DNA of 64,000 bases from Psammoneis japonica. Taxonomy: Eukaryota. The stretch covers positions 620,001 through 684,000 of the forward strand of contig QPGO01000009.1 of NCBI GenBank assembly GCA_008632985.1, given 5' to 3'. A program made the position numbers and the translations under genes. Under the pieces are notes generated by a model, which was not told where the DNA came from, did not search any database, and saw nothing but the letters and a program-made list of their open reading frames with translations. Positions 2,895-34,362 of this stretch are shown here, one piece after another. How positions within the stretch are numbered: the first letter of the stretch is position 1; each line of letters starts with the position of its first letter.

Positions 2895-3581
2895 CTTGTT
2901 GTCGAAAAACGAATTCAACCTGGACCGATTGTGTGTGTGTGACGACTTTGGCGTCGTAAGCTGTTGATGATAAGGATTGTTCCATGACGTGACGACTCAT
3001 GGGATGCGTTTTTGTGCGTAAGAGCCTCGGGTCGTTGTTCTGGTAGAAGTAGCCGTGACATGTACGGTCCTGCTTGTCTACTGCGAAATCATGGGTGACT
3101 AAAACAAACTTGGCAGAGAGCCACTTGTGTAAGACCAGTCTAAAATCATCAAATTATGCATTACCTATATACTGTACCGCGCGCATCATCTCTCTAGCAA
3201 TACAACCCGCCGTGTTATGACATTCAAGAAGTTCCCTACAACTATCGGCACCTCCACAAGTGGTTCGTATGATATCTTGATCGAGACATGATTTAGAATC
3301 AACCGAAAAGGACCAACGGCCAGCGCATATGGCCAGCGAGCACAGGCCAGACCCCTCGCAGACAAAGATTTATTTATTTGGGATTTACCGGTGCTGTCGG
3401 CACCGGTGCCGGTATGCGGCACCGGTAAATCCGATCGACAAAGACGACTTTCGATCCGCTGCCGGTCGTCCCTACCGGTTAAATCTGCATCGAGTGTATA
3501 TCTCTTGTTGTGTGAGAGAAACGTGACAATAATTTGGCACAAGCACTTTTGCAGGCTCCAACGAATTCGCCACCAGTTGGG

Positions 3582-6500
3582 ATGAGACTGCTGTTGTTGC
3601 TGTTGCCGCTGCACAGCGTTGTTGGATACGTACCAATAATTCATCGACATGCTTCTCAGTCAAGTCGTTTGGCGTTTTGGAGAGACAAGGCGGTGCCTTT
3701 TTTCATGACCTCCCAAGGAACCGAAGATGGCACCAGGAGGACTCACAGAAAGCGTTTCACAGCAAGGCGTGATGCAAGAGGCCCTCCAACAAAACAAAAG
3801 CGACACAATGCCAACCAAAATTGGAGATTGCCTAACCTGAGAACTGTCGACAGAGTGTCTGATGTTCTCGACATTCACCAAAAGCATGGCAACAAAATGG
3901 GCCCAAAGGACATTTCGCTTTGTTGGAATCGAACAGCTGCCATCACATCAAGGAATGGGGCAGAGCGTGTGAATCTGCCAAGCTGTGGAAGAGAGATGCA
4001 ACGATTGCTGCAAGATGCTGTGAAAGCATTGGACTGCTACACTCCTGACTTGGTTGGTTCGACTGCGAATGCCCTTGCAAAAATGTCTGACATGAGCAGG
4101 GCAAAGTTTGGGGCGGACATTTGGGCGGGTTACGAGAGCGAGCGAGTGCAGCAAGAGGCAGCCTCTCTCCTGGGGATTTGTCCATGACCTTGTGGGCGTT
4201 TGCAAAGGTTGGGCAACCCTCAACTGAGCTTTTTGACAAACTCGCTGTGGCATCCATTCCAAAGATAAGCCACTTCAACCCACAGGACCTTGCCAACACG
4301 GTCTGGGGACATGCTGCCATTGGGCACTCGTCTCCGATGCTTTTTGATGCCATTGCCGATGAATCCATGCAGAAGATGCACAAGTTCAGCCCGCAAAACC
4401 TTGCCAATGCGGTCTGGGCATGTGCTTCCATTGGGCACTCGTCTCCGATGCTTTTCGATGCCATTGCCGACGAACCCACACAGCAGATGGACAACTTCAT
4501 CCCGCAAGAACTTGCCAATGCGGTCTGGGCACATGCCACCATTGGGCACTCATCTCCGATGCTTTTTGATGCCATTGCCAACAAAACCACACAGAAGATG
4601 CACAAATTCAACCCGCAATGCCTTGCCAATGCGGTCTGGGCACATGCCACTGCAGGACACTCGTCTCCGATGCTTTTCGATGCCATTGCCGATGCATCAA
4701 TTCTGAAAGTGGATGCATTCAAACCACAGGAGCTTGACAATGCGGTCTGGGCACATGCCACCCTTGGGCACTCGTCTCCGATGCTTTTCGATGCCATTGC
4801 CGACGTGTCAATCATGAAAGTGGATGCATTCAAACCACAGGAGCTTGCCAACACGGTCTGGGCATGTGCCACCCTTGGGCACTCATCTCCCATGCTTTTT
4901 GATGCCATTGCAGACGCATCAGTTCTGAAAGTGGATGCATTCAAACCACAGGAGCTTGCCAACACGGTCTGGGCACATGCCACCACTGGGCACTCGTCTC
5001 CGATGCTTTTCGATGCCATTGCCGACGAATCCATGCGGAAGATGGATGTGTTCATCCCGCAAAGCCTTGCCAATGCGGTCTGGGCACATGCCACTGCAGG
5101 ACATTCGTCTCCGATACTTTTCGATGCCATTGCCGATGAATCCACACAGAAGATTGACAAGTTCATCCCGCAAAGCCTTGCCAATGCGGTCTGGGCACAC
5201 GCCACTGCCGGACACTCGTCTCCAATGCTGTTCGATGCCATTGCCGATAAATCCATGCAGAAGATGGATAAGTTCAACCCGCAAAGCCTTGCCAATGCGG
5301 TCTGGGCATGTGCCACTGCAGGACATTCATCTCCGACACTTTTCGATGCCATTGCCGATGAATCTGTGCAGAAGATGGATAAATTCAGCCCGCAAAGCCT
5401 TGCCAACACGGTCTGGGCATGTGCCACCACTGGGCACTCGTCTCCGATGCTTTTCGATGCCATTGCCGATGAACCCATGCAGAAGATGGATAAGTTCAAC
5501 CCGCAAAGCCTTGCCAATGCGGTCTGGGCACACGCCACTGCCGGACACTCGTCTCCAATGCTGTTCGATGCCATTGCCGATAAATCCATGCAGAAGATGG
5601 ATAAGTTCAACCCGCAAAGCCTTGCTGACACGGTCTGGGCATGTGCCACTGCAGGGCACTCGTCTCCGATGCTTTTCGATGCCATTGCTGATGAATCTGT
5701 GCAGAAGATGGATAAATTCAGCCCGCAAAGCCTTGCCAATACGGTCTGGGCATGTGCCACCACTGGGCACTCGTCTCCGATGCTTTTCGATGCCATTGCC
5801 GATGAATCTATGCAGAAGATGGATAAGTTCAACCCGCAAAGCCTTGCTAATGCGGTCTGGGCATATGCCACTGCAGGACACTCGTCTCCGTTGCTTTTCG
5901 ATGCCATTGCCGATGAATCTGTGCAAAAGATTGACAAGTTCGTCCCGCAAAGCCTTGCCAATACGGTCTGGGCATTTGCCGCCATTGGGCACTCGTCTCC
6001 TTTGCTTTTTGATGCCATTGCCGATGAATCCACACAGAAGATTGACAAGTTCATCCCGCAAAGCCTTGCCAATACGGTCTGGGCATGTGCCACTGCAGGA
6101 CATTCGTCTCCGATGCTTTTCGATGCCATTGCCGACGCATCAATTCTGAAAGTGGACACATTCAGCCCACAAGGCCTTGCTAATACGGTCTGGGCATATG
6201 CTGCCATTGGGCACTCGTGTCCGATGCTTTTCGATGCCATTGCTGATGAATCTATACAAAAGATGGAGAAGTTCAGCCCGCAAAACCTTGCTAATACGGT
6301 TTGGGCGTATGCGGTGTGCGACCACTGTGCAGATCTTTTACTCGGCGACAACTTTGCTGACATCTGCAATTCAAAAGCTTCATTGTTTTCGTTGGAAGGT
6401 CTCTGCCAACTCCATCAAGTCCAGTTGTGGCTTCGCGAACGCAACAATCCCTTGCAATTCAATGCAGCTTTACGTCAGAAGTGTCGCAATGCGTTTGTGC

Positions 6501-6876
6501 AAGAACAAGGGATACCGTCCAAGCTTCAGAAGGATGTTGTAACTTCGCTTAATGGGCTTGGGCTCCAGGCAGAGGAAGAGGTCATTACTGATGTCGGTTA
6601 TAGCCTGGATGCATTGTGAAGTACAATCAGAAACTGGTTGGTATCGAGGTTGATGGACCATCGCACTTTCTTGCTGATCGTTCGCCAACCGGATCCACCA
6701 TACTGAAGCATCGCCAGCTTTCAAATCTAGAGGATTATATTCTTGTGTCAGTGCCGTTTTGGGAGTGGGATGAAGTGTCGGCAAAGGATTCATCCATGAA
6801 ATCTGGTCGGGAGTACCGCACCAAATACTTGTCGAATGCCCTTGATGCGGCTACAAGAATTGGTAGTACACCCTAG
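3582..6876 (+). CDS. Organelle-targeted helical-repeat (37-aa HPR/OPR-like) RNA-binding protein with C-terminal RAP domain; frameshifts near 4125 and 6615
   Basis: Signal peptide MRLLLLLLPLHSVVG, followed by 19 repeats of FxPQxLANxVWA(Y/H/C)ATxGHSSPMLFDAIA. RAP motifs GYSLD...IEVDGPSHF...TILKHRQL...VSVPFWEW span ORFs 4121-6619 and 6616-6876. Confidence 0.85.
4274..6320 (+). repeat. Coding tandem repeat, 111-bp unit, 19 copies (last one partial)
   Basis: Unit starts at 4274 and the 19th begins at 6272 (exact 111-bp period). Units 9-11 and 12-14 look like a higher-order 333-bp duplication. Confidence 0.95.
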
Positions 6877-7035
6877 GGTCTGCTTTTTTACCAATGACAC
6901 ATTGTAAATAAAAAGAATCACTGCGTCCGAGTTTTACCAATGAAGTGTAGGAATGTTGAAATCACTGTTGCATTGTAGTACATAACTATTGTCATCATCT
7001 GTAGCAATCGTGTATTATTATTGAGATTTCGTGTT

Positions 7036-10937: not shown

Positions 10938-11281
10938 AGAAGAACAAAACGGGCGGACATGCATGTGCTTGGGCCGTCGAAAAACTAAAAGCTATAAAGC
11001 AATAAGAGTTACGAATACGAAATCGAATTGAAGATAGAGTGAACGAGAAGATTGCAGCATAACAGCATCCACTTTCTGATTTGTACACGATAGGACTGCA
11101 GCTGCACAGCATGCACACTCTGACCATAATTCGGTAATGGTGTTCTGTCCCTCCTTTCTAAAGTTACATTGCATGAGCTCTTAAAATATTACTACTACCA
11201 CATTATTATGAAAACACAGTCCTCTCTACTCTCGACTCTAGGATTCGGCTTTGACAACCAGAGCGCAAACTAATACGCGTA

Positions 11282-12806
11282 CTACTTCCTGATGTTGTTC
11301 TTGTAGCAATCGCTGTCCGGAAAAGTAGCCCAATCAAAGCGATATCTTTCCACAAGTTTCTCCACATCTCTGGGGTTGGCTCCATACTCCTGGGCCAAGT
11401 GATCTGGTAGTGCCCTCGCAATAATCTCCTGACCAAGATTTAGACCCGCAATGTTGTCGCTTTCGTAGTGAACTCCGGCGACTGTCCGTGCGTAGGATAC
11501 AGCCCAATCCACAAGCCTTACTTGGCACTGCTGTTCCGCATTGAGCTCTAGAATCACACATAGCCACATGGAAGCAGCACTACCAGCGGAGTGCATGGCA
11601 GGCCAAGAAGGGTGCGTTGGAGAGCCCTCGGGGTACGCAGTAAAGTTAAACTGCGATTTGAGCTTCATCCTGAGGATTTCTTCCTCGATATCTAAAGGAA
11701 CACCTTGACTAGAGGTCAATTCCCTACTTGCGATTTGCCACGCAATTTCTTCGGGACGGGCACGTCCGGCATAATACTTGACACCGAAATTGGAAGGACC
11801 TACTTTTGCAACGGCCCATCCCGTCATGTAGGACAGCATTACCTCTCGACGAATAAACTCTGTCGCGCTGTAGGAAGGAATACATTTCCTGTTGACCTTG
11901 AAGCCTTCGCCAATGAGCTGCCTAATCAAATTTGCATGGTGTGTTCCCGGAAGCTAAAGGGTAGAGAGTCAAACCACTATTGTCAGAAACATATACATTT
12001 CTGGGCTTACCATCATCCAAGATGTTCGAACTCACCTCATCATGAACATACTCAGCCACGGTTTCAAGATCTAGATCTTTAGACTTCCAGATATCGGGGA
12101 GGGGGAGTACTCCTCTGGGATCATCACCCCTCACTCGTTCCAGTTGCCTGTTCAAGACAACCCTAAACTCGTCCCAGAAGGGACTCTTCGGATCGCTTGA
12201 AGGATGTGTGGGGGCGCCTCCGATTTGCGAAATGAGCTCTCGAGAAGGAACATCACACTTGAGACAGTCCTCGTGTCGAACAACAGAGATACACCTTGAC
12301 TGACGGAGCATGTTTGCGGTTCCTGCATCGATGGGATAATCGCTGTCGGTGAGGGGTAGTTGGCTACTGTACTGCCTCTCCAACTGCCGCGAGTCAAAGT
12401 ACACCTTGGAGAAGCGGATTCCAAGATCATTTGTACCCTGATCGTCCTCTTGAGAAGGTCGGTCAACGCAAAACCCAACCGAAGCTCTAGCCTGTATAAA
12501 GTTATCAAAACCAAGCGAACAACAACAATTGAGTTGTTTTATAAGGCTTCTTCCAGAAATGATTGCAATTACTGTACTAACCTGTCCACCGCATCCAGGA
12601 ATTGCCCTAGCCTTTGAGCTGATGTCACAAACTAGGCCGCCACCACAATCAAGGTCGTCGTAGCACGGTCCACGACAAAGTCCAAGGGGGTACTTGTTTC
12701 TTTCTTCTGCTTTCCAGATGTACTTCATTGTTTGTGCGTTTGAAAACACCAAAAAGCAGGTGAAGCATAGTGCAACACTTACAGGACAAATGTTCTTAGA
12801 AGGCAT
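11282..12806 (-). CDS. Secreted vanadium-haloperoxidase-like (PAP2 superfamily) protein with N-terminal frustulin-like Cys domain, copy 1; two introns (about 12492-12581 and 11954-12035)
   Basis: Signal peptide; KYYAGRARPEE, HPSWPAMHSA, RTVAGVHYESD. GT-AG introns join YVHDE|LPGTHH. Confidence 0.8.
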
Positions 12807-13781
12807 CGTGTTCTTGGTTCAATAAGACTGTAGGCTCTGTTTTGTTAGAGTTGTTGATTTATCGGGGTGAAGGTGTTTTTGATAACTGATTCGGGATCTT
12901 TTGATTTATGAGCAAGTTCTGTGGGGAAAAGAAGTCATGGGTCATCACATCCTGGTTGTGTTCTTCTTTTTTGTCGCGGCCCCATAATTGTTAGAAAAAG
13001 TCATTGGTCATCGGTGAAATTTGGAAACATTTATGAACAATATTCTATTCGCATCTATAGATGAGGGTATTCACGTGCTTACGGGGAAGTGACCAATTCG
13101 ACAAAATAATATGACAGTCAGCTATTGGAATGTCGAATTCTTCTTCAATCATCTTTTAGTCGTAGAATTACAGTAGTACTGTACAACACAGCATTGTTAA
13201 TGACTTAGACGTTTTCCGTGAAGGATTGAGAGGATAGGATCGTTGTTGGCTTTGTCCGCACACTGCATTCGTGTTTTTGTCCGCGATCCTTTGTCGTGGT
13301 TGAAGCCTTTGCAGATACTCGAAGAACAAACTCCTCAATCCTCGCTCTTTTCTTCTGTTCGTGCGCCAGAGTCTTTTGTTGCAATTCACATTAGCACCAT
13401 ATTAATGGTGAAAACTCTCAATCCTTCATAGTGGCAGCTATATGCTACTGACAAACACAAGAAGAGACAGCTTTCAAATCTGAGAGAGGGGCACCAGAAA
13501 CCAGACACACACAAACGCTTTCGTGGCACAGAATGCTGGTGACTGCCGCGAGGAGTCTGGCAGTTGGAAAAGGGTCTTGTGGAGTACCTAAACGACCATA
13601 CCGGTGGCGCCGCATTGACAGACATCTTCTTGACTTTCCCAAGTGCGAAATCATTTCTCCTGCTACTGTGCAGCTAAGATGCACATTCTATTATAAGTGT
13701 TCAACTATACTAGTAATGCATTACACGCAAATATTCATTGCAGTCGTCTCGTTAGGATTCGGTTTCGACAAACAGCGCAAA

Positions 13782-15322
13782 CTAATACGCGTACTTTCCG
13801 ATATTGTTTTTGTAGCAATCGCTGTCCGGGAAAGTAGCCCAATCAAAGCGGTACTGCTCAACAAGCTTCTCCACGTGGCTTGGGTCGGCCCCATACTCCT
13901 TGGCCAAGAACCCTGGTAGCTCCCTTCCAATGATGGCCTGACCAAGATTGAGACCCGCAATGTTGTCGCTTTCGTAGTGAACTCCGGCGACAGTCCGAGC
14001 GTAGGATACAGCCCAATCCACAAGCCTTACTTGGCACTGCTGTTCCGGGCTTAGCTCTAGAATCACACAGAGCCACATGGAAGCTGCGCTACCAGCAGAG
14101 TGCATTGCAGGCCACGAAGGGTGTGTCGGAGAGCCCTCGGGGTACGCAGTAAAGTTAAACTGCGACTTGAGGTTCATCCTGAGGACCGCGTCCTCGATAT
14201 CTTTAGGAACACCTTTTGCAGAGGTCAGTTCCCTCGTTGTGATTTGCCACGCAATTTCTTCGGGACGGGCACGTCCGACGTAGTACTTGACACCGAAGTT
14301 GAGGGGGCCTACTTTCTCGACCGCCCATCCAACCAAGTAAGACAGCATTACCTCTCTACGAACGAACTCTGTAGTGCTGTGGGAAGGAACACATCTCCTA
14401 TTAACCTTGAAGCCTTCACCAATGAACTGCCTAATCAAATTTGCATGGTGCGTTCCCGGAAACTAAATGTGTCGGTAGGCAAGCAACTCTCGTGAGGAAC
14501 GCGAAGCATTTCTGGACATCTCGACCAAGATGTTCGAACTCACCTCATCATGAACATACTCAGCTACGGTTTCAAGGTCCAAATCATTAGATTTCCAAAT
14601 ATCAGGGAGAGGGAGTACTTTTCTAGGGTCGTGTCCGTTCACACGTTCCAGTTGCCTATTCAAGACCACCCTAAACTCGTCCCAGAAGGGATTGTTCGGA
14701 TCGCTTGTAGCATGCGTGGGGTATCCTCCAATTTGAAAGATAAGTTCTCGAGAATGCACGTCACATTCAATACAGTCCTCCTGTCTAACAACAGAGATGC
14801 ACTTGGACTGACGGAGCATGTACGCTGTTCTTGCATCGAGGGGGAAATCGCCGGTGGTGAGGGGTAGTCGATGACTGTACTGTCTCTCTAACTGCTTGTG
14901 TTCAAAATACACCTTGGAAAAGCGGATTCCGAGGTCTCTTGGACTCCGCTCCTCCTCTGGGTGGGGACGATTGACTCGACGAAAGCAATAACCAACGCCG
15001 GGTCTCGCCTGAATTAAATATTCAAAACGTGGAAAAGAATGACAATGTAAGAATCAAGTTGTATCTGGGATTCTTCTAAATAGTTGAGATCACTAACCTT
15101 TCCAGTGCATCCAGGAACTGCCCTGCCCTTAGGGTTGATATCACAAACGAGGTTGCCACCGCAGTCAAAGTCGTTGTAACACGGTCCACGGCATTGTCCA
15201 AGGGGATACTTCTTTCTTTCTTTGGCCTTCCAGACATACTTCATGGCTCTTGCGTCTGCAAGAGCCAGGAAGCAAGCGAAGCATAGCGCAACACTCACAA
15301 GACACATGTTCTTGAAGGCCAT
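13782..15322 (-). CDS. Vanadium-haloperoxidase-like protein, copy 2 (close paralog of copy 1, same intron positions)
   Basis: ORFs 15014-15322, 14463-14912 and 13782-14438 match the exons of copy 1 and carry the same active-site motifs. Confidence 0.8.
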
Positions 15323-16722
15323 GTTGTTGAAAACCCAGCGAGATTGGAGGCGCTGTTGAATTGTGAGTTCGTATTGGAGTGAAGAATTGATGTTGGATTT
15401 TACGTTTTATGGGACAAATTGTGCCTCACACCCAGTTGATTCTGCTTTCGCGGCTTTTGCATCATAATAATTGTTGGAAGCATCTGTCCTAATTGTTCAT
15501 AACATTTATCCTTGTCCTTTATTTAACAAAATGGACAGACGGATATTTGTGTATTTTTAAGTATCTTTAAGCATCATATTTCGAGAGAAATTGGGTATTA
15601 AGTAATTTATGCGATCGTAATTAAGAATAAGTAGTAAACTTATTCATGCATTCGCAAGCTGACAAAATCTCGTTTGTCATGCATCGAAATCAATTTATAC
15701 CGTTATATACAAAAGTATAATATTGTGACATCACTTTATTGAACTCTTCATATAGACGACCTCAAGCAGACATGTCGCGCTTAATGATTATTTAATCATA
15801 GATCTCGATCCGCACCCATAGTGCCATCAGAAAGTCTTGACAGAATCATAATGTCATATCGGCGGTCGCCGAAAGAAGTACATAGGCCCTCAGGAAAGCA
15901 AAAAGCAAGGCAGCATACCGGTACGGTAGAATGATATGATAGGCCATTTTTACTGGTTCTTCGTGCTTCGTGGACTTCTACGACCAGGGGACATAGGGCC
16001 TTAATTAAGTAGGGAGAAGAGGCCTTTGAAGAAACGTGATATTCTATCGAGCAGCTGGAGAGATCTCGCCTCTCTACGGTAGCTACTCTCTACTACTCCT
16101 ACTGTAGAGAGAGTAGATAGAGTAGACTACGACTGCTAGCTAGCTACCGGTAGAGTAGGGCCCTAGCTAGCTAGTAGCCAGTGCCGGTAGCTCAGAGCAG
16201 TACTGTACTTTGTACGCTTAGTTCGGATTTGGCACCCTCCTCGCCATGAGTTCACACCGTGCAATCCTAAGCTCCCTCTAATGTCATGCAGCTTCAGGCA
16301 CACTCCCAACAGGGAGGTTTGTAGGTCCACCCGGGTGCTACTTCTCCTACGGTAGCTAGAGTAGAGAGTAGCCAGACTGGGGCTATGCAGGGCCTTTAAA
16401 AAGAGGGGGTTCTGCTTCTACTTGGTGACGCACAGAAAGCGAGCATTAGACTAGGATATCCTTGTCTAATTCCAGTCGCACCGAAGGACGGACGGTAACT
16501 CAACCTATGCAACAGATTGGATCAGGTTCCTTCCATAGACCTGCGCTAGCTAGATGTTTCCTGTACCGGTACCGTACCGGTAGAATGAAAGCTTTGCAAG
16601 ATGTTTTGAATTATGGTACACTCTGCCAAGGGTTTCACGCATTGCACCGCACTCTCTAGAGTACTGATGAAAAGGGGACGGAGTAGGTATTATCTAAGTA
16701 AATATTTGCTAGTAGCACCAAA

Positions 16723-18159
16723 CTACAGTCTTGTAGAACTTTGGCCCATGCCACTCATGTAGCAATCTGTTTCCTCAAAGTCGTTCCAGTCGAACCGACT
16801 CAACTGTACCTTCTCTTCAACTGTTTTTTTATCGCTTCCGTAGACTTTGGCCAGATGATCAGGCAGTTTCCTCGCAATCACCTCTTGACCAAGGTTTAGA
16901 CCAGCAATGTTATCAGATGGATAGTGAACTCCAGCCACTGTCCTTGCGTGCGATACAGCCCAATCCACGAGCTTTGTTTGGCAAATCTGCTCGTCGGTCA
17001 ACTCTAAAATCACTGGTATATAGAGAGAGGCCGCACTACCAGCGGAATGCATTGCAGGCCAGGAAGGGTGAGCTGGAGATCCCTCGGGATAAGCCGTAAA
17101 GTCGAATTGGGATGTGAGGTTCATGGCCATAATTTCGTCCACAACGTCAATTGGAACACCGTCGGCCTCCGTGAACTCGCCTTGGGCGATTTTCCATGCT
17201 ACCTCTTCTGGTCGGGCGCGTCCAACTGTGTATTTAGCTGCAAAATTGTAAGGTCCAGCTACACTTACTGCCCACGTTGTCAAATGAGATAGCATAACCT
17301 CTCTTCTAAGAAACTCAGTAAACGAGAGAGACGGGATGATGTTCGTGTCGACATCGAATCCTTCTGCAATGAACTCTCTAATCATATTGAGGTGATGCGT
17401 CCCTGGAAGCTGCGGTATGCATTTCGAACCGATTTAGTCACCAAAATAGTCAGAGAAAAAGATAGTAGTTGATTCTAGAAGCATGTATCTTCTGCTGCAA
17501 CTTACCTCGTCGTGAACATGCTCAGCCACCATTTCTAATGTCAAATCACTTGTATTCCAAATGTTGGGTATGGGAAGTGCGCCAAATGGATCAGTGTTGT
17601 TTCTTCTTTCTTGTTGAGCCCGAATGACGGGACGGAAGTCATCCCAGAAGGGACTGTCAGGATCACTTGACACGTGGACCGGATATCCTCCCACGCTTTC
17701 AATCAGCATTTCCGTGTACATGTCATCACAATCGTTGCAATCGCTTTTCCGAACAACAGAAATGCAGTTGGATTGCCGTAGCATGGCAGCTGTTTCATCA
17801 TCAAGTGGAAAGTCAGTGTCGGTAAGTGGGAGCTTGCCTTCAAATTCCGCGGGGATTTCTCCATTAAAGGTCACCTTGGAAAACCGCATCCCCATATCGT
17901 CTTCCGGTTTCTCGTACATTGGGTATCCTCTGTGGCCGATTGTACTTCCAACCATCATTGGAGCGAGTTTTCTTTCTCGTTCAAGGAAAGAAGGGCCAAG
18001 TTTGAATTGACCATGCGCTTCATTATTCTTCCTCCTGTCTCGGGCATTTTCACCTCTGCGAACCCTTGGTGCTTCCTTGTGAATGTCATCGGCGGAGAAA
18101 GCAAAGCTACGAAAGGCGACCGCCACTGCAACAGCAACACACCTTTTGCTGAATCGCAT
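16723..18159 (-). CDS. Vanadium-haloperoxidase-like protein, copy 3 (more divergent, no Cys domain); intron 17410-17505
   Basis: Signal peptide; HVHDE|gtaag...cag|LPGTHH; KYTVGRARPEE, HPSWPAMHSA, RTVAGVHYPSD. Confidence 0.8.
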
Positions 18160-21681: not shown

Positions 21682-24569
21682 ATTGTGTAAAGCTCGAAAT
21701 AGCTTCTTGTTATCCTGACTCTTTTTGCATTCACCTTGAATACCTTTTACCTTTTACTGTGTAGAGTGTGTCGTTGCGATGCGCTCATGCATTTTCTACC
21801 CGCAATTTTTCCTGTCCGGCGTCCGTCATCATGACAGCACCAACAACGCGTTGCAAGTGAATGTCATCCAGGACAACTTTCTGGCGAAGCTCTCTTTCAG
21901 ACAGGACTGATGATGCCAGCTCAAGTCCAGCAATGAGCTCAGCACTTGAAGCTGACAAAATTCACAACTCTCAAGTTGCTTCGTGGTCTCGGCAGCACAC
22001 TGGATGAGCGCAATCCCAGCTTTTTTGTCTGACTTGGTCATCAATGTAGAAGCTCACAAGAGGGCTGCAAAAGTCAGTGCAGAAGATCTTGAAGGCATGT
22101 GCAGACTCCTTGAATGATGGTGCTCTGAAGCCAGCAAGAGAGAGCTGCTCTCAAGCACCTTCTGTGGCTTTCCATGGGGAGCCACTTTCAGAAAAGGGCA
22201 ACAATGTGCTTGCCCTCAGACTGATGATGTGAGATCAACCTTGGCACTCAGCAGCAATGGCAACAAAGGAGCACATGGCAAAGAATTTGGAAAAGCAAGG
22301 CCAGAAGACCAGGTCAGATGGCAATGTGTTGTGCAAGCAATGTCGGCAAAGCCAAAGAGTGCAGTGCTCAAAATGAAGTCAGATCTTGTCATTTCAAGTG
22401 TGTGAGACCAATTTTTGAAGTTGGTTTTGCTCTGCAGGAAATGTTTTTGAACTGTGCTTGGGGTTTCTAATGTGCCAAACACCCTTGGTGCCATCAAGAC
22501 TCTGGATGGTCTTGTCATTTTCGCTGTCACAGCAGGCCACTCTCTGGACCTCTTTTCACCCAACTGAAAAGAGAGCCAGCTTTGAGTGTGTTTTCTTGCA
22601 CTCTTCCTTTTGTTGAGGTGAGCAACTCCAAATTCTGATGTGATCACACCTGTGCCATGAGATGGGGGGGGGGGGGTTCAGATTGTGGACTGACAGCTGC
22701 ACTTTTCAATGTTGCAGGTGTGTTCAAAAGTGTGTGGCTTCAAGATTGAGTTGGATGTGGAAACCAGCTTTGTCATGGCACAGAGGTTGTGCTCTTTGTT
22801 TCTGATGCAGCCACTCAAATCCATCCTGTGTGCATGGGTTCTGGCACAGCTGCATGGAGATCTCAGGTTCAAACTCTGCAGGAGGACCATGTGGCCCATT
22901 GAAGAAGGCAAATTTAAAAAAAACCCTCACCCAAAAACACAAGCAAAGAGTGAGAAGCAAGAAGAAGTGTTAGAAACACATGAAATGTGGCACAACAAAG
23001 AGGCAACCAAATGGCTTTGCACATGCCCAGTGCAATCCTGTTGCCATTTGCCATTGCAGTCTGCAAAACTTTTCACGTTGCAAACATTTTTGCAATTTTT
23101 GCTCAGAAATTCTGAGGACTTTCTGCACAGAAACTCACATCAGCTCTGATGCAAATTCTGCAGAGGTGGGAAGAGGCCAGCATGTCTGGCACCATGGTGT
23201 GCACATCATCATGGCATGCTTCTTGTGCAGTGCAGTGTGATGGGTGGTCACCAATCATGCTGCAAAGAAATGTGCAGTGGCACTCTTGCTGCCCCCCCCC
23301 CCTTTTGCTGATCCAGCATCAGGGGTGCAAGAAGAGTGCAGCACAGCCACAGTGGGTGCACTCCTTTTTTGTTTTGGGTTTTTTTTTTGCAACAACAAGC
23401 ACAGATCTTTCATCTGCTTCCAGCTGCTGTGAGCTTTGCCCCCTCTGCTGGGAGGTGGTGCACCACTGAGCTGGCCTCTTGACTTCAACTGTGCTCATGC
23501 TGTGTTGTTCTCAGCCATTTGTGCCTCACACAACATCAGCACAACTCCCAGCTCCAACTCCAAAAGAACCCACTTGTGAGGCTGCAGCTCTGGGAGATGC
23601 CAGGGGCAGGTTCATGATCCATTGCCTCAGCTCAAGGAACAGTGTGTGATGCAGAGGCTTGGCAAAGAAATCTGCAATCATCACCTCTGTGGGTCAACAC
23701 TTTGCTCTTGTCTCTTTGGGCCAGATCCCACAAGCTTCAAAGAAATGTTGGATGTCAATGTGCCTGGTGCATCCACCACCCATGCTTGGCTGTTGTGTTC
23801 TGGCCACATGACAGTGGCTGGCACTCTGGCCATCCTGGCACACATCATTGTCCTCCTTTGCTTGGCATCCCTGGGCAATCAGGAAGCAGTTCCCAGATCA
23901 AATCAAAAAAGAGCAACATTGCCCATGCCCACCAGCTGTGCTTTTTTGTGGAGCTCTTTTTCTGCCCAGCTTTTGTTTGGCAGAAATCAAGCACACTGAT
24001 CCCTCCTCTCCCAGTGACATGGGGGATGCACCAGCACAGCTCTTGCAGTCCTGGCAAACTGCAAAAGATGTGCCCACTCACCACTTCACAGCAGCGCGCA
24101 TCCTTGTCAGCCTTGAGAGCAAGTGCAAGGTCTTTTTGTCCTTGGAGATGCTGCGCACAGCAGTGCAACTTGCTCCAGTTGTCCTGAAGGGGCACGGACA
24201 CTCACACACACAGAAGCAATGCTGTGATCTGAAGAGGTCTGGCTTGGTCATGAAGTGCTGGCATTGGCCAACCCTGTCAGGACCCAGAGGAGGCTTGGAA
24301 AATGTGTTTGTGACAAAAAGGTTTTTCTTCACTGGGCTGGAGCCACTCTGGTGTTCATGTCCTTGGGAGCACCTCATTGCATTGATGGTGCACTCCATGT
24401 GTGGTTTTTCATGACAACAAACTTTGCTTTTCCGTCCTCAGAGAAATCAGCAGTTGGGCCCAGGCAATCATGCACCTTGCCCTGACAGACAGTGATTGGT
24501 GTTTTGTTGGCTGCACTTTTTTGTTAAGAGCACATTGCAGTGACATCTTCCAGCACCTGTTGTTTGATG

Positions 24570-27500
24570 CAAGAAAGCTCAAGGTCACCCGTTTGTGCCA
24601 CATGACAGCACACTGCTCACTGTCACCCACCTTGTTCATGACACACCAGCAACATGGGTTGACCTTAAAACATGGGTCCTTGCAGAGGAAGGAGGAAAGG
24701 TTTTTTCCATGACAAGTGCTCCCTGCTGGGTGCTGCACAGCCCCTTCTTGAGCCACACACAGAGCACCTGTGCTTTCCATTCTCCATTGCCACACACTTG
24801 CAGTGCTTTCTTAGATCAACTTTTGTCAACATTTCAGCCATCTTGCCATCGAGTTCACATGTGCACAAGCTTGTCCATGATGCCTGCATGCATGAATGTG
24901 CTCCTGGGATGTCTGCAGTCATGACTTTTCTTCTTTCCTGTGCATTGATTGTCAGTGGCTGAAATGGGGAGCTTGCTTGCTCATGTGATGGGTGCAGAGG
25001 TTTCCTCCCAGATTTTGCAGGGCCATTGCTTCCAGCCATCAGTGCATCCTTGTCTCTTGATCATGCTGCCCTGCTTCTGCTCAAGGCACATCAGGTGCCA
25101 GTGAGCACATTCTTTTTGCTCTTGGGCTGTGTCTCTGGCAAACACCAGCTGGACAACACCACAAAAATCAAGTTGCTGCATGTCCTTGACTGCATCATCA
25201 TCTGCCCCTTCACATCCAAACACTTTTGGTTCTTTCAATGCTGACATTTGTTCCACAAGAAACAGGGTGCCCTTGGGATCTTCAAAATGTTGTGTGATCT
25301 GATTCAGTTGGCAGCCCAACTCACTCACAGTTGGAGCAAGCACCAGCTGCAGCTTCTTTCCTTTTGTGCCCTGAGGTTGCAGGCATGGGCTCTGTGACCA
25401 TGTCTGCTGTGGCCCACCATTTCAGCATCCAGACCATCCTTGCTGCCATTGTCTGAGTCCAAGTCCAAATCACATTGCACCTTGAGTGATGGTGGACCTC
25501 CCTTGTCATTGTCTGTCAAGTCCACACACACTGTCAGGTCAGCACTGTCCCCAGCCGCACTTCCTCTCTCTGCTCTGGGATGAGCTCTGGTGTGTTTTGT
25601 TGGTGTCTTTGCTGTGTGTTTGGTTGAGCACATTGTTGTGTCTTGCTGAGGGAGATCCACATCAATGCGGTCCTGCTGCATGGGGTCAGTGGGACCCATG
25701 TTCAATGGGTCTTGCTCGGCTCTGTCATGTTGTCAAGTGGGGTGCACGTTGGCTTGTTCCAGCTCCAGGTGATGCGCAACTTTTTCAAAATCCGTTTTTT
25801 GCCAAATCGAAGGGTGAGTGCACACTTTGCATGCATTTTTGGGTGCACACTTGCCTTTCGATTTTCAAAACGATCAAAATTGAAGGAGTCACTTGCACTA
25901 AACTGCGCTGAAGATGTGCCTCTCGCGTGATGAAAATCATCTCACCTGGAGCTGGAACAGGCCTGTCAGCTGTCATGCTGTTTGGCTCAAATCCTGCCTT
26001 GCCTCTGCCCCCCCCCCTGTGTTGTGCCNCCCCCCCCCCTGCTCTTGCAGCTTTGCATCCCACTCCTGTGGTTTCTTCCATTTGATGGGGGTGCAATGAT
26101 GTGAAGAGCTCACTTTTGCAGCAAATGCTTGGGCACTTTGGGCTTGTGCAGAACCGTCATTGTTGGGGTCATCAGCTGAGTTGGAGTCACAGCCAGAGTG
26201 TGTTGAGTTGGCTGATGAGTCATTGTTTGGTGTGCAGGCAGAGTCATGATTGTTGTCAACTTTGTTTGCATGGTGGGGCAGCTCATGATTGCACCAATCT
26301 GTGGCTGTGAGGGTCTTTGGCATGTCTTGCTTTCTGTCTGTGGCAGCCACACAGGTGGTGGCATTGGCAGGCATTGGCACAGCCATCTAGCAGTTTTGGA
26401 CAATGCACTTCCCAGTGGCAAGTGACATGAAACATTGGCCACCTCATTCATTCCCAGTGGGCCCAAAGCAGATGGTGCAGGATGTGCATGGTGTCTCACA
26501 ATGCTGTTGTGTTCCTCACATGCTTGAGCAACTTGAGCACAGGCACCAAACTTGAGGTGCTCATGTTTGTTGCAATCAATGTGCTGCCCAGCACGGATGT
26601 GCCATGGGGGCAGGTTTCCAAGGGTGCTGTCATCATGGGGCAAGGCCGTGAGCTGGAGTGCCACACTGGACACCAGACAGGGATGATGACCAAATGGGGA
26701 ATCCCAGAAAATGGCAGCTGGTTGTGCCTGCTGCAGATTCAATCCTTGACAGTGCAGATGCCCTGTTCAATGTCTGACATGTGTTCATCATGGGAACAGA
26801 GGTCAAATGTGGCACTGGGCACTGGGTCTTCCAGCACTTTGAACTTGGGGCCAGCCTGAAAATTCTTTGTCATCTTGAACCCTCTCTGCTTGTGCCATGA
26901 CTTTCTTGAGTGCCACTGCCATGACCAGCTCTGGTGCCTTGGTGGCTCTTTGGCTGCACATGACAGCTGATCCAAAGCACAGTGCTTGGCATGAGATGAG
27001 GAAAAAACAGGTGCTGTTGATGAACATGATGTCAATGGACAGAACAAAACTGTGGCAAGTTTCAAGGATTGAGCTGGGCAGCTTGTCTCACTGCACACTG
27101 ACCAGTGTTCCCAGGCAGTGCAATGCACTGTCTTGCCCTCAAGCAACCAATGCACTCTGCCCAAACACATGGTGCACATGCCATTGACCACACACAATGC
27201 CTGGCAATCAGACAGTTGAGCACTTGGTTCCTGTCAACCAATCAATGCATGGCAGCATTGAAGGGGAACATCATGATGCTTTGAGCTGCTCTGGCGGAGT
27301 GATGGCATCCTGGTGCTCATGTTTGGGGGTGTGCTGCTGCTTGACCAAGTCCTCAAGTGCATCATTAACCATTGCCACCTTGAGCAACTGGTTGGTGGGG
27401 GGCTGTGCTTGATCACTCTCCCAACATTTTCATGCACCAGGAATCTTCAATCTCCTCTTGACCCATTCTCTTTACTTTCACAATCTGTGTTGAATTGCAA

Positions 27501-27850
27501 GTCCAGCGCACCTTCCACTTGATCACTTCCATGCCTTTTCCATCATCTGCAGCCTGGACTCTGTTGGGTTTGTGTTTGACATGTGCGATGAGTTCAACAC
27601 ACCTGTTCATGGGACAGACCTCTCCATTCATTGACGCTGTTGTCAAACCATTCTTCAAACAACATGCAGCCACTTGCACATGACTGACAGGAGAAAGAAG
27701 GAAGAAAGACTTCAAACAAAACAATGTGTGCCTGAAGAGCGTGCTTCTCATCATCCTTGCATCACGGTGAGGCACAAAACAGTCAACGGTCTCTTGCTTG
27801 TGTGGACCCAGAAGCTGCTGCAAAGAGTCAACATTGCATGAATGGGTCTC
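24570..27850 (-). mobile_element. Degenerate Ty1/Copia pol remnant (integrase then RT, truncated within RT)
   Basis: Integrase-region SHDEHMSDIEQGICTVKD and DCNKHEHLKFGACAQV. RT-region HLMCLEQKQGSMIKRQGCTDGWKQ, VMTADIPGA and FKVNPCCWCVMNK..EQCAVMWH. IN-before-RT order. Boundaries approximate. Confidence 0.8.
25751..25963. mobile_element. 213-bp MITE-like element with 22-bp terminal inverted repeats, nested in the Copia remnant
   Basis: ggcttgttccagctccaggtga (25751-25772) pairs with tcacctggagctggaacaggcc (25942-25963), 1 mismatch. There is also an internal inverted repeat. TSD not evident. Confidence 0.65.
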
Positions 27851-28718
27851 CAGAGAGCTGGAGTCTAGAGCAGCTGCTCTCTAGAGCTGGAGAGTGGCAG
27901 TGGCCACTGCTGGAGCTGATTGACTGATGGGGAATGCAGTGCACAACAGAAAGAGACAACAAATTGAGTGTGTCTGCAAAACAGCAGGTTGGAAGGTCCC
28001 CATCTGAGGTGTCAACCTTTCCAGCTGCAACATGCTTGCTCCTTTTGTTGCACAATGACTTGAAGCATTAGCCTCAGCTCATCTTGACTGTTGTCAGAGG
28101 TGCTGCAAGTCATGCATCAAAGCTGCTGCTTGGACAGCTGCTCATGCACAAACATGGGCTTGCAAGCACTTTCATCTTTCACAAAACATTGCTGCAATTC
28201 ATTGCGCCTTTTTTCATGGTGCACATGACAAACTGCAATAGTGTGACCACAAGAAGACTCCCTCAATCAATGGACAATGTCCTCCACATGTGATTTGGTG
28301 GGTGTGTCAATGCCTGCATGTTGATGTTCACTGTCACCACAATCTGCTTGTGTTGCATGTCAGGCAAGTGCAAAGAGCAGATGTCGCAGTCTGATTTGTC
28401 AAAGTTCAGCCAAAATTGAAAATTCAAATCCAAAGCAATCAAAAGTTTTGAACAAATTTCACTTCAAAACACTTGACAACAAATCGGGAAAGTGGCTTTG
28501 CAACATTTGGACATCACTGAATTGACAACCAACAATGCAGAATGAACCCGCACTCAAAACTGCATGCACAACAATGCAGTGATCCACGCAGAAAGTCTGC
28601 ACACATCAGAGATGCAGATGTCAGGAACTTCAACAAGACATGTGTTTCACACCACATGCAAATGAAGGTGAAATTTCTGTTTTTGTGGTTGGCAATGGTC
28701 ACGTGTTGGTGACAAAGT

Positions 28719-31700: not shown

Positions 31701-32950
31701 CTGCTTCTGTTCTTCCGAAGTTAGATGAGTTGCTGCTGCAGTTTCACATTGATGAGGTTGGCAGCATTGCAATCTGAGTCAAAAGGGCCCAATTGACCCT
31801 GTCATTGAGACCAATTGCAGCATGAGATTCCTCAATGCAATCAGCAATCAACTTGAAAACATTGGCAGCGAAGTGTGCATCAACATTCTTTGTCAGTCCA
31901 GTCAAATCCTTTGATTTGACCTCTTCATCAGCAAAGTCCAATGTGATTCCAAGACTGGACACATCATGTCATGTCCCAGAATCACATCATGATGTCTTGA
32001 AGAAGAGTGGGTGTTGTCAACATGCACCATTGTTTCCATCATGTGTTTGTCAAATTCAGGTGAGGAGAATTGGATTTTACACTGACTGTCAGTCATGAAG
32101 AGTCCTCCTTTGGTCCGGCAGATTCTTTTGTTCTCAGTTTCCATGTGAACTTGCACAAATTGTGCTTGGCGATGTTCTGCCATCAAGGAGAATGTGCAGA
32201 GGCTTGTTTTCACTCCACCTGAGGAGGCATTTGTGCAAGCAATGACTGGTGGACCAGCGTGGATTGCTTTGGCTCTTTTTCTGGCCTTCCCAATGTTCAG
32301 CAGCATGCAAGACTCCTTGAGTGGTGCCAGTCATTCCTCAGAATTGCTGCACATTGTTTTTTCAAACTGACAGTTTTCCTCACTGAGGGTGTCAGAGTCA
32401 TGTTCCTTGCTCTTTTGCTTTGTGTCTTTGTTCAAAGAGAACTTGTCTTGAGTGTTTTTTTAGCTGCCTGAACAATCATGTCATCCAACTCTTCTTTGCA
32501 ACTGGTGTTTTTGTTGTCATCACACAACCATGTGTGTGATTGCCATTTGAACAATGCCATTTTGGATCATGCTCATGGTTTCCATGGCATTCTTTTGATG
32601 GTCGTTCAATGACCCAGCACTTGCCTGCATCATGAGTGGTTTTTTCACAACAACTGCACCACTTCTTGGACTCAGCACCTGTGGTTGCCATTTGAACAAT
32701 GCCATTTTGGATCATGCTCATGGTTTCCATGGCATTCTTTTGATGGTCGTTCAATGACCCAGCACTTGCCCGCATCATGAGTGGTTTTTTTGCAACAACT
32801 GCACCACCTCTCAGACTCAGATCATTTGGTGCCAGATTGGCAACCATTTTGGAACCATGATTGGATCCATCCTTGGCTTTTGATCCAGACTTGTTGCTTT
32901 CATCAGAAGTGGAAGAGCAAGTTTTCCAACATGTGAAAAAAAATGTTGCT
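28719..32950 (-). mobile_element. Degenerate Ty3/Gypsy element (gag CCHC, PR, RT, RH, IN, PPT, 3' LTR 28719-29104); 5' end missing
   Basis: WCSCCEKTTHDAGKC, ILLDG, SEWAPPTF...LDSNMGCCHI...RTCVDN, LLHPGMNRTEETI...CETCQK, MDLIGP. The LTR is homologous to 54673-55050. Confidence 0.85.
32540..32820. repeat. Tandem duplication (about 145-bp period) covering the gag zinc-knuckle region
   Basis: tgccatttgaacaatgccattttggatcatgc... occurs at 32541 and again at 32686. Confidence 0.85.
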
Positions 32951-32969
32951 TGCCAAGTCTTGTTGCACT

Positions 32970-33900: not shown

Positions 33901-34198
33901 CTGCAAGACCTCCCCCAAGAATGTCTCGCACATCGTGGATCTCCTTTTCGCATCATGCGCACATCCACCCCAATGGGGGCAGTCACCATCCAGCACTCTC
34001 CAGACATCACTGAATGGATCAGCATCTGTCGTCTTCACCCTGTCTTCTAAACTGTCCAGTTGGGGAAGCGAGGGCCGTGAGTGCGTGCGTCTGTCCGCAA
34101 GAGTGTCGTGTGCGTGTCCCATCCACATTTTTTCTCAGTGATTTTCCGAATGTTTCTCTGTGTTCTCAATGAGTCATTTCAATGACTTGTCCCTCTTG

Positions 34199-34362
34199 TG
34201 CAAGCTCAAGCTGAGGTTGATGTCAAAACAAAGAAGTGAGCAGACCGAAGAGAGGGGGAGCCCAAGCGTCAGCGAGCGCTGGCGAGCCCTCTCAAACGGC
34301 TGCATCAATCTGACATCCAAAATTGACACTGCACATCAGAAGCGTGCGAGTGAGTTGCTGCA
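34199..34362 (-). repeat. 3' LTR (164 bp)
   Basis: Direct repeat of 39462-39625. Confidence 0.95.

Follow-up and report, generated by a model that had tools for sequence, protein, structure and literature searches.

Loss of TpA on one allele of an intact host RAP-domain repeat gene, with the signature of TpA hypermutation

Results

The window, by which we mean the whole 64,000-nucleotide stretch of DNA analysed here, contains a FAST_1 + RAP gene of the heptatricopeptide-type repeat kind, whose coding sequence runs on the forward strand from 3582 to 6876 according to Pfam matches, open reading frames and run contigs. A Pfam search of the window's open reading frames matched FAST_1 (PF06743, E = 6.6e-57) in 4 stretches and RAP (PF08373, E = 8.7e-13) at residues 14-59 of the reading frame 6604-6873. 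The latter match places the RAP domain at 6643-6780 on the forward strand, inside a 3′ part of the gene with normal TpA content. In window coordinates the gene is split over three frames (3582 to about 4122, about 4123 to 6614, and 6615 to 6876) because a base is missing from the assembly in two places on the forward strand: in a G run at 4122-4125, where frame 0 passes to frame 2, and at 6614, immediately ahead of the RAP domain, where frame 2 passes to frame 1. The run contigs have the extra base at 4122/4125 in both alleles (depths 33.3 and 32.9 of 66.2) and an added C at 6614 (depth 62.9 of 62.9), and these two bases join the three frames. Both apparent frameshifts are assembly errors and the gene is therefore intact; they had gone unnoticed in the preliminary description. 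We read the first in-frame ATG, at 3582, as the start of the gene, and the N-terminus that follows is hydrophobic.

With its C-terminal RAP domain, FAST_1/37-residue repeats and unbroken reading frame, the sequence is an intact nuclear gene encoding a helical-repeat protein of the FASTK/RAP type, which presumably binds RNA in an organelle. It shares FAST_1, the C-terminal RAP domain, the 37-residue repeats and the ...LANTVWA[FY]A... motif with the FASTK/RAP heptatricopeptide-repeat proteins as these appear in the accessible text of the published accounts (PMC6212722, PMC8190603), but 15 of its 20 repeats carry His or Cys where those proteins have the core aromatic residue. Homologs of the gene occur across algae. 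No close orthologs were found, the best relatives being 43-49% identical over about half of the query.

The repeats lie in tandem at 4274-6320 on the forward strand as 19 units, each exactly 111 bp (37 amino acids) long; GTCTGGG/GTTTGGG anchors, 19 in all between 4301 and 6299, keep the same 111-bp spacing. TRF assigned 18.4 copies with 84% matches to the array, and unit 19 is alignable over only about its first 47 nt. The array contigs are fragmentary, and among the contig pieces listed many place at two sites. One contig joint, 4922>6227, had 21 letters on one side and was dismissed as a probable repeat artefact.

TpA is nearly absent over 3638-5161. The unique 5′ coding part of the gene (3638-4273, forward strand) holds 4 TA against about 27.6 expected from the ordinary TA density of the window (Poisson P(≤4) = 3e-8) and is single copy, with a contig depth of 55-66 that equals that of its flanks. 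The preliminary description had the depletion extend into unique upstream coding sequence, with about 3 TA in 3661-4200, and this is borne out by the 3 TA found there (3833, 4038 and 4131) and by a TA observed/expected ratio of 0.11 for 3650-4273. Over 3650-4249 there are 3 TA, and none of 337 ordinary 600-bp segments has fewer than 11. Units 1-8 (4274-5161, forward strand) contain 1 TA in 888 bp (observed/expected 0.02), and every outgroup-supported TA site in them is now CA or TG. Units 9-19 (5162-6320, forward strand) are partly depleted, with 1-5 TA per unit and TAT retained in units 15, 18 and 19. The observed/expected ratio is 0.28 in units 9-14, 0.41 in units 15-19 and 0.52 in the 3′ unique part, and 0.63 in the ordinary window sequence (37,305 bp). 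The fade towards the 3′ end that had been described earlier is present but not monotonic, as TpA persists in the middle units 9-14. The surviving TpA of these units all lie in a GATAA context, yet the GATAT at 4118 was hit. GC content climbs to 0.53 within the tract. The promoter side of the gene is spared from TpA loss.

The codon after W-A (unit columns 37-39) is CAT in 6 units and CAC in 2, giving 8 His, TGT in 7, TAT in units 15, 18 and 19, and TTT in unit 16, exactly as first counted. The two other sites said to vary do so as well. At AAT|ACG (columns 24-25) TA stands in 5 units (14 and 16-19), TG in 9, CA in 5 and CG in 0, and at TCT|ATG (column 93) TA stands in 2 units, CA in 9 and TG in 3. 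Units 10 and 13 differ at 10 bases, 6 of which make up three CA-versus-TG double differences, and the TpA hits are indeed later than the duplication of the units. Both CA and TG occur in 13 of the 111 dinucleotide columns, 7 of them bridged by TA and without CG. Among 80 difference events in 9 disjoint pairs drawn from units 1-18 there were 13 CA|TG doubles and no adjacent double transition of any other class, compared with 5 CA|TG doubles among 295 events in a 1.6-kb paralog control (Fisher p = 2.8e-6). The claim that CpGs were largely kept stands only in part, given that 17 of the 80 events are CpG-linked and that CpG observed/expected in the gene is 0.55-0.87 versus 1.01. At column 24, TA was lost synonymously (AAC ACG) in 5 units and by replacement (AAT GCG) in 9. 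Column 21 has 15 CA by the synonymous route versus 1 TG by the replacement route, and here some selection is visible. Outgroup polarisation covers only columns 24 and 37, and the CA/TG/TA columns 21, 65, 93, 95 and 108 could have a history of ordinary substitution and unit turnover.

The direction of change was assessed by a motif census over 120 homologs, standing in for a unit-by-unit alignment of orthologs. The W-A-x-A position is F in 550 and Y in 451 of 1061 repeats (94%) and H or C in 24, versus H or C in 15 of 20 repeats of the window gene. No homolog among the 120 has an H/C share above 25%. F/Y is nearly universal at this position, and the His and Cys codons of the window gene therefore derive from TAT. 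The A-N-x-V-W position shows T in 544 and A in 12 of 898 homologous repeats, compared with A in 8 of 18 in the window gene. As judged from these homologs, TA is the ancestral state and the change runs from A/T to G/C.

Further support comes from the second allele. The run contigs stem from one study and probably from the same sample as the assembly, hence they are not independent of it, and they are contigs, not reads. They contain a heterozygous bubble at 3904-4202 (forward strand), represented by two 300-nt contigs with depths of 33.3 and 32.9. Over this 299-bp bubble, the only part in which the other allele is seen (its array is not covered), TA occurs 2 times in the window allele and 14 times in the other (binomial p = 9e-14), the latter being ordinary density. 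Of 19 allelic differences, 12 are TA in the other allele versus CA or TG in the window, evenly divided between TA>CA (6) and TA>TG (6), and one more is a TG-versus-CA double. The window allele has thus lost 12 of 14 TpA against a background difference of about 2%, and the loss is allele-specific. Ten of the 12 TA-linked differences alter the amino acid, at unrelated residues. Upstream, at 3638-3832, TpA is absent from either allele in the run contigs, so part of the depletion is shared, is older or was copied between alleles. Across the locus as a whole, homozygous segments are interspersed with segments that diverge by 6%. Where the window is compared with a homozygous run contig (3298-3933), 2 of 3 substitutions are TG in the window and TA in the contig (p about 9e-4), which hints at a possible trace of recent TpA events.

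The same signature, TpA changed to CpA or TpG, marks the repeat blocks of the window, as had been proposed, and here it is documented by homologs, alleles and LTR/TE pairs. One such block is TpA-free, spans 17.6 kb (21800-39450, no strand assigned) and contains Ty3/gypsy remains with Integrase_H2C2, RVT_1 and RT_RNaseH matches. Its first part (21.8-33.6 kb) is also CpG-free, while 33.6-39.4 kb retains CpG; CpG observed/expected in the older blocks is 0.02-0.3. Pfam searches of 39 further open reading frames from the TA-free blocks gave one additional integrase match only, and those of the blocks at 22-28.7, 41.8-45.2 and 52.7-54.2 kb yielded no annotation. An LTR retrotransposon at 34199-39625, with RT/RNaseH on the minus strand, has 164-nt LTRs (TG..CA) and a 5-bp target duplication (TCTTG). 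Its left LTR has 0 TA and its right LTR 5, and the pair differs at 14 of 164 nt through 5 TA singles, 3 CA|TG doubles and 3 other events. The two LTRs of an element are identical when it inserts; the differences that this pair has since acquired lie mainly at TpA sites, so the process acts on DNA that is already integrated. The 5′ LTR retains 5 of 8 TpA and the transcribed 3′ LTR has lost 8 of 8. The TA-rich part of the 5′ LTR would lie upstream of the transcription start and, together with the spared promoter side of the RAP gene, this raises the idea that targeting may follow the transcript.

A second comparison within the window pairs a TE copy at 28719-29529 (forward strand, 2 TA) with its TA-rich homolog at 54236-55050 (67 TA). 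At 51 sites the former has CA or TG (28 TA>CA, 23 TA>TG) where the latter has TA, with 0 sites reversed, and the pair additionally shows 11 CA|TG doubles. In the alleles, the LTRs and this TE pair, the differences left over resemble background divergence. The TA-rich copy stands unmutated with TA-free flanks on either side, and the TE blocks end abruptly, within about 100 bp, without a gradient that would indicate spreading. As a control we used the PAP2 paralogs on the minus strand (11239-15329), which are 80.7% identical over 1.6 kb and have normal TpA (71 and 66 TA). No TpA depletion was seen in this pair, in a third paralog or in three short tandem repeats of the window.

Discussion

These data make it likely that one haplotype has undergone an in-place, DNA-level conversion of TpA to CpA/TpG over about 2 kb, of the kind described in Bigelowiella natans, at a target chosen by an allele-specific state. 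The conversion tract would begin at roughly 3640/3840, reach to 5700 and fade out by 6300, each event changing A:T to G:C at the T or the A of a TpA on either strand. The same process would have stripped nearly every TpA from the adjoining Ty3/gypsy blocks. Judging from the signature alone, the mechanism would be that of the TpA-only hypermutation of B. natans mutation-accumulation lines. Its target would depend on a state that is local, heritable and specific to one allele (silent chromatin or guidance by RNA), and not on repetition as such, although the tandem array may be what drew the silent or RNA-guided state. At the protein level, Tyr is replaced by His or Cys, Thr by Ala, Ile by Thr or Met, and Val by Ala. 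Conversion of TpA to CpA/TpG cannot create a stop codon, so that even a very heavily hit gene retains its open frame.

The preliminary description took repetitiveness itself as the trigger, as in RIP, with spreading, and this was not established, since single-copy DNA is hit and low-copy repeats are spared. We regard a process of this type, in which the tandem 111-bp repeats or paralog homology are sensed and mutation leaks some 400-600 bp into the unique 5′ flank, as rather unlikely, though it is the most serious of the alternatives. The only host gene with the signature is also the only long, high-copy tandem array of the window, paralogous repeat genes share 31-mers with that array in the run contigs, the remaining depleted blocks are repeats or TEs, and fungal RIP is known to leak into flanks. 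However, at least 350 bp of the hit tract is single copy by read depth, and with 12 of 14 TpA lost within the bubble this 5′ sequence has suffered no less than the array. Nor does the damage track similarity, as TpA is better preserved in the most similar units (9-14) than in units 1-7, which are more diverged, and the depletion is one-sided, strong at the 5′ end and fading at the 3′ end, though the 3′ and middle units are most alike. The 80.7% paralog pair, the third paralog and the three short tandem repeats escaped, as did a TA-rich TE copy amid TA-free flanks, and the TE-block edges lack a gradient. In B. natans, too, the experimentally hypermutated region is described as single copy in the accessible part of the preprint (10.64898/2026.01.13.699255).

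The remaining explanations fare worse. It had been suggested that the changes diversify residues of an RNA-binding protein, but the hit positions are the most conserved core of the repeat in the 120 homologs, and adaptive diversification is unlikely. Selection in general, whether favouring His/Cys and Ala for RNA binding or lowering TpA through codon and amino-acid usage, has little probability as the cause. Repeat proteins of this family do bind RNA and differ between units, and the synonymous excess at column 21 fits selection; against this, column 24 lost the same TA synonymously in some units and by replacement in others, the unique 5′ part and non-coding TE DNA changed likewise, and the 10 of 12 allelic TA-linked changes that are replacements fall on unrelated residues. 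Scarcely more probable is that a paralog or pseudogene lying in hypermutated, TE-rich DNA supplied the depleted 5′ two-thirds through gene conversion or recombination, the gene itself never being targeted. Paralogous repeat genes exist, and the homozygous/6%-divergent mosaic means that conversion does occur at the locus, but the unique 5′ part is present at allelic depth only (33 + 33 versus 55-63 in the flanks), no donor copy was seen among the contigs, and the tract is collinear with the other allele, differing almost only at TpA sites. Least credible of all is an artefact in which TpA modification in silent chromatin makes a long-read basecaller write CA or TG. The assembly has uncorrected 1-base indels, and the 2 of 3 substitutions at 3298-3933 with TG in the window and TA in the contig would suit such miscalling; on the other hand, a half-depth run contig shows 0 substitutions across 300 nt relative to the TA-poor window allele, a TA-bearing contig lies equally deep beside it, every site is fixed for either CA or TG, as would not be expected of miscalling, and the protein-level and LTR-level patterns are coherent.

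The nearest known counterpart of the conversion that we favour is the hypermutation of B. natans. According to the accessible text of Mettrop et al. (10.64898/2026.01.13.699255), 231 of 302 de novo mutations in that alga fell in two regions, where almost all were A>G or T>C and all were on TpA, and an adenine deaminase acting on DNA was proposed. The same text gives 124 TpA-depleted clusters enriched in reverse-transcriptase Pfams, and some TpA-depleted coding sequences with host-type Pfam domains. Shared with the window are the restriction to TpA, the products CpA and TpG on both strands, the local domains with a very large rate contrast, and TpA-depleted, CpA- and TpG-enriched clusters with reverse-transcriptase genes. 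Of the features of TpA hypermutation, we find the TpA to CpA/TpG change, its A/T to G/C direction, both strands and a confined high-rate domain, while a foreign target is found in the neighbouring LTR elements but not in the RAP gene, which belongs to the host. The B. natans targets proven in that text are two inserts, a single-copy one of giant-virus origin and one of virophage origin, and its events were measured de novo, whereas here one allele of an intact host gene is affected and the events are known from sequence comparison. The genome of the window has few introns, and for three of its proteins the named relatives are diatoms, at 38-47% identity and in no case near 100%, pointing to what is probably a lineage other than B. 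natans. Our literature search found no other papers on TpA to CpA/TpG hypermutation in algae or diatoms.

Other systems resemble the pattern in part. RIP in Neurospora and other fungi likewise consists of dinucleotide-specific transitions that mark repeats and TEs in blocks and touch adjacent unique DNA, but it turns CpA/TpG into TpA and makes stops; here TpA is destroyed, GC rises and stops are impossible. CpG decay by 5-methylcytosine deamination also ends in TpG and CpA and accompanies TpA loss in the older blocks and, to a mild degree, in the gene, but its source dinucleotide differs, and the two processes are separable since the 34-39 kb element and the RAP gene lost TpA and kept most CpG. 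In E. coli, CTAG depletion is ascribed to very-short-patch T:G mismatch repair, a repair bias that similarly turns TA in context into CA or TG; it is bacterial, tied to one methylase context and genome-wide, in contrast to the limited domains seen here. ADAR-type A-to-I hyperediting of dsRNA matches in its A-to-G change with T/U before the edited A, as the accessible text of the B. natans preprint has it (10.64898/2026.01.13.699255). It edits RNA and is not inherited, whereas the changes here lie in genomic DNA contigs, affect both strands equally (6 versus 6) and postdate LTR insertion.

In its accessible text, the 2026 preprint frames TpA hypermutation as a defence against integrated viruses, whereas here an intact host gene has been struck. 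The signature lies on a host gene whose other allele keeps its TpA, so the process can strike host genes and has done so recently and in an allele-specific manner. This allele specificity suggests that targets are chosen epigenetically or under RNA guidance and not recognised as foreign. More tentatively, and with the odds somewhat against it, TpA editing may be neither confined to chlorarachniophytes nor purely antiviral, acting also in a diatom-like alga, under a heritable allele-specific silent state and on a single-copy host gene; as part of the same speculative reading, it might be a silent remodeller of host repeat proteins besides a scrubber of TEs. As this mutator removes TAA and TAG and creates no stop, the length of an open reading frame in TpA-free DNA says nothing about whether it is functional. 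Rates, targeting rules and the consequences for the protein can be measured at the heterozygous locus and in the LTR pair. With diatoms as the nearest named relatives, the phenomenon is probably wider than one lineage.

TpA loss in a FAST_1/RAP gene and its repeat array

On the forward strand, between about 3582 and 6876, lies a host gene encoding FAST_1 (Pfam, E=6.6e-57, in four stretches) and, after it, a RAP domain (E=8.7e-13). Its middle is built from 19 units of 111 bp (4274-6320) in perfect register, with the anchor GTCTGGG or GTTTGGG found 19 times at 111-bp steps between 4301 and 6299; Tandem Repeats Finder reports 18.4 copies with 84% matches. The protein has 771 relatives at E<=1e-10. 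The best 120 of these reach top identities of 43-49% over about half of the query, their named members come from diatoms, pelagophytes, haptophytes, one dinoflagellate and Plasmodiophora, and the repeat consensus in relatives reads ...LANT[AV]WA[FY]ATAGH.AP.LFDA.... Directly upstream of the gene, at 3385-3480, we noted a cluster of inverted repeats with ACCGGT (TTTACCGGTGC ... GCACCGGTAAA).

TpA is scarce in the 5' half of this gene and becomes more frequent towards its 3' end. Observed/expected TA is 0.11 in 3650-4273 (4 TA), 0.02 in units 1-8 (1 TA in 888 bp), 0.28 in units 9-14, 0.41 in units 15-19 and 0.52 in the unique 3' part, compared with 0.63 across the ordinary parts of the window (37,305 bp). 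Only 3 TA occur in 3650-4249, whereas every one of 337 ordinary 600-bp windows contains at least 11. A preliminary description had held CpGs to be largely kept; retention is partial, with an observed/expected CpG of 0.55-0.87 in the host gene versus 1.01. The surviving TpA of units 9-14 (5248-5713) and the one at 4266 are all within GATAA. GATAT at 4118 is converted; GATAA survival may reflect context protection or shared descent.

The codon counts of the preliminary description were borne out. Across the 19 units the W-A-x codon is His in eight (CAT 6, CAC 2), TGT in seven, TAT in three (units 15, 18 and 19) and TTT in unit 16, and at the TCT|ATG junction, which that description had also named, TA occurs twice, CA nine times and TG three times. 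The AAT|ACG junction has TA in five units (14, 16-19), TG in nine, CA in five and CG in none. Both CA and TG are present in 13 of the 111 dinucleotide columns of the unit, and a site with CA in some copies and TG in others must go back to TA or CG. Seven of these columns also contain TA without CG, one contains all four, two contain CG without TA and three neither.

Homologs indicate the direction of change. In 1061 repeats of the best 120 of the 771 homologs the W-A-x-A residue is F 550 times, Y 451, L 21, C 18 and H 6, as against H 8, C 7, Y 3 and F 2 in the window gene. Ahead of V/A-W, the same 120 have T in 544 of 898 repeats and A in 12; the window gene has T 10 times and A 8 times. Any H or C at W-A-x is found in 22 of the 120 listed homologs, in at most one quarter of the repeats of each. 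Because homolog repeats have F/Y and T, and rarely H/C or A, this comparison identifies TAT/TTT and ACG as the ancestral states and His, Cys and Ala as derived through TA>CA or TA>TG.

Unit pairs carry the signature of TpA conversion

From the 18 full units we formed 9 non-overlapping pairs of nearest units (80 difference events), and used as control a 1.6-kb pair of PAP2 paralogs from the window (80.7% identical, 71 and 66 TA, 295 events). CA-versus-TG double differences account for 13/80 events in the array and 5/295 in the control, and single TA-versus-CA/TG differences for 9/80 and 19/295. The corresponding counts are 17/80 and 35/295 for CpG-linked events, 0/80 and 1/295 for TA-versus-CG doubles, 13/80 and 108/295 for other transitions, and 28/80 and 127/295 for transversions. 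CA|TG is the sole class of adjacent double transitions in the array pairs, and the array differs from the control in doubles (Fisher, p = 2.8e-6) and in all TA-linked events (p = 2.3e-5). Between units 10 and 13 there are 10 base differences, all of them transitions and six of them within three CA|TG doubles. The doubles fit the earlier proposal of separate hits postdating the duplication, although exchange between units could also have spread such states.

The two alleles differ in TpA content

Over 3000-7000 we compared contigs from three runs of one sample in one study; they probably derive from the assembled sample itself, and the other allele is seen only at 3904-4202. There, two 300-nt contigs have depths of 33.3 and 32.9, the adjoining single contigs 55-63. 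One equals the window sequence and the second differs at 19 positions; the locus is heterozygous. Twelve positions are CA or TG in the window and TA in the other allele (6 per route), two are TG versus CA (one double at 4016-4017), two TG versus CG, and three are remaining changes. In 299 bp, the other allele has 14 TA, the ordinary density, and the window allele 2; the asymmetry is significant against the one-directional rate of the PAP2 control (p = 9e-14). Ten of the 12 TA-linked changes are amino-acid replacements: Ile>Thr, Ile>Met, Tyr>Cys, Val>Ala, Arg>Gly and Asn>Asp.

Both alleles are identical at 3298-3933, including 3638-3832, which is without any TpA; depletion there is thus shared, older, or copied between alleles. 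At 3839 and 3846 the window has TG and the homozygous run contig TA (depth 55.4 of 55.4). These are two of three substitutions across 636 bp, making random error improbable (p about 9e-4), and may represent ongoing or very recent TpA change, or else a fault of the consensus at these TpA sites.

In the window assembly the reading frame changes at two points, about 4125 and about 6612. Relative to it, the contigs of both alleles carry one additional base at 4122/4125, and at 6614 the sole contig spanning 6224-6769 carries an additional C (depth 62.9 of 62.9). Since these inserted bases unite the three frames, the gene is intact and both apparent frameshifts are assembly errors. Given two indel errors in a 3.3-kb gene, further broken-looking frames of the window may have the same origin, for example ORFs 46279-48282 and 48033-49127, which overlap.

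Transposable elements were mutated in place

TpA is nearly absent from about 21.8-39.45, 41.8-45.2, 52.7-54.2 and 55.05-55.46 kb, and the boundaries of these blocks are sharp, within about 100 bp. The proteins still recognisable in them are reverse transcriptase, RNase H and integrase of Ty3/gypsy elements; the remaining parts are unannotated. CpG is lost too from the older blocks (observed/expected 0.02-0.3) and kept at 33.6-39.4 kb (0.66-0.9). At 32535-32824, in a TA-free and CpG-free block, lies a 145-bp tandem duplication (93% identical) with CA|TG doubles in 2 of 8 difference events.

A complete Ty3/gypsy-type LTR element occupies 34199-39625, with reverse transcriptase/RNase H on the minus strand, 164-nt LTRs starting with TG and ending with CA, and TCTTG as its 5-bp target duplication. 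Its LTRs differ at 14 positions (five TA-versus-TG/CA singles, three CA|TG doubles and three other events), the left having no TA and the right 5. As the LTRs were identical at insertion and now differ at TpA, mutation took place on DNA, in situ and in both. This in-place divergence excludes RNA editing before integration as the sole cause.

The segment 28719-29529 (2 TA, 13 CG) aligns at 73.7% with the integrase-bearing, TA-rich and CpG-rich fragment 54236-55050 (67 TA, 49 CG). At 51 sites the former has CA/TG where the latter has TA, with 0 in reverse; 11 CA|TG doubles occur as well, and CpG losses number 34 against 4. The fragment, which sits between the TA-free flanks 52.7-54.2 and 55.05-55.46 kb, looks like a later insertion so far spared by the mutator. 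The first proposal, that one TpA mutator strikes both these elements and the host gene, is supported, and the allele and LTR comparisons add weight to it.

Lineage, precedent and targeting

The proteins of the window are themselves absent from the protein collection searched. The RNA methyltransferase of the window has best matches of 47-50% identity and the DNA methyltransferase of 41%, both with named relatives in diatoms (Cylindrotheca, Seminavis, Cyclotella). The closest Atlas cluster (0.97) occurs most often in diatoms, but two clusters most frequent in green algae come very near it (0.96). The latter, a C-5 cytosine enzyme on the minus strand (62232-63998, passing the window end; PF00145, E=1.3e-48), has 34 relatives at E<=1e-20; all named ones are diatom proteins, some with a chromodomain. 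Window genes are long, unbroken frames. The host is probably a diploid, intron-poor, diatom-like alga other than Bigelowiella natans.

Our literature search found one matching report, a preprint on B. natans (bioRxiv 10.64898/2026.01.13.699255), and no other account of TpA mutation of this kind from algae or diatoms. According to the preprint, 231 of 302 nuclear point mutations in mutation-accumulation lines fell in integrated giant-virus and virophage regions; 230 of the 231 were A>G or T>C, each on TpA. The rate was about a thousand times background, in some lines only, and some TpA-depleted coding sequences had host-type domains. Its authors suggest that an ADAT2-like adenine deaminase edits the DNA and that RNA or chromatin may guide it. 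The mutator is thus already described, in that one preprint, whose main text is silent on RAP/FASTK genes and on tandem repeats. New here are the host gene as target, allele specificity and, probably, a second lineage.

The preliminary description saw the trigger in repetitiveness itself, as in RIP, with spreading. The array is indeed the only long, high-copy array of the window and lies in its only depleted host gene, and run contigs show that paralogous repeat genes exist. However, the unique 5' part, single copy by its allelic contig depth, is struck as completely as the array, and depletion is one-sided and least where units are most similar. The PAP2 paralogs and three short tandem repeats are unaffected, a TA-rich element copy is flanked by TA-free DNA, and block edges show no spreading. 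In B. natans, too, the giant-virus target is reported as a single-copy viral insert, unlike the host gene with an array described here (10.64898/2026.01.13.699255). On this evidence a RIP-like trigger with spreading is not supported. The PAP2-family paralogs stand as three copies in a row at 11239-17433 (minus strand at 11239-15329; 80%, 70% and 67% identity); their TpA content is normal.

As the target signal we prefer a local state that is heritable and allele-specific, and that the array might cause. The LTR element, read on the minus strand, would have kept 5 of 8 TpA in its 5' LTR, which lies where the TA-free domain ends, and lost 8 of 8 in its transcribed 3' LTR. TpA is also spared upstream of the host gene. 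Targeting that follows the transcript would fit both. Both routes are used equally (6:6 between alleles, 28:23 in the element pair), which speaks against a simple mechanism acting on one strand in the transcription bubble.

Consequences for proteins and reading frames

TA>CA/TG makes no TAA, TAG or new TGA and removes TAA and TAG, so a frame stays open at any mutation load. With only TGA left to end a frame, the 823-codon open frame antisense to the array (3943-6414, minus strand) and many long frames of the TA-free blocks are spurious by-products. One TA meets two fates in the array, synonymous (AAC ACG) in some units and replacement (AAT GCG) in others, which points to mutation pressure rather than selection for a residue. 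His or Cys occupies a core position in 15 of 20 window repeats that is aromatic in 94% of the repeats of the best 120 of 771 homologs. Adaptive diversification of the repeats, as first suggested, finds no support in these data; the His and Cys residues look like damage that a diploid tolerates and not like a tuning of RNA recognition.
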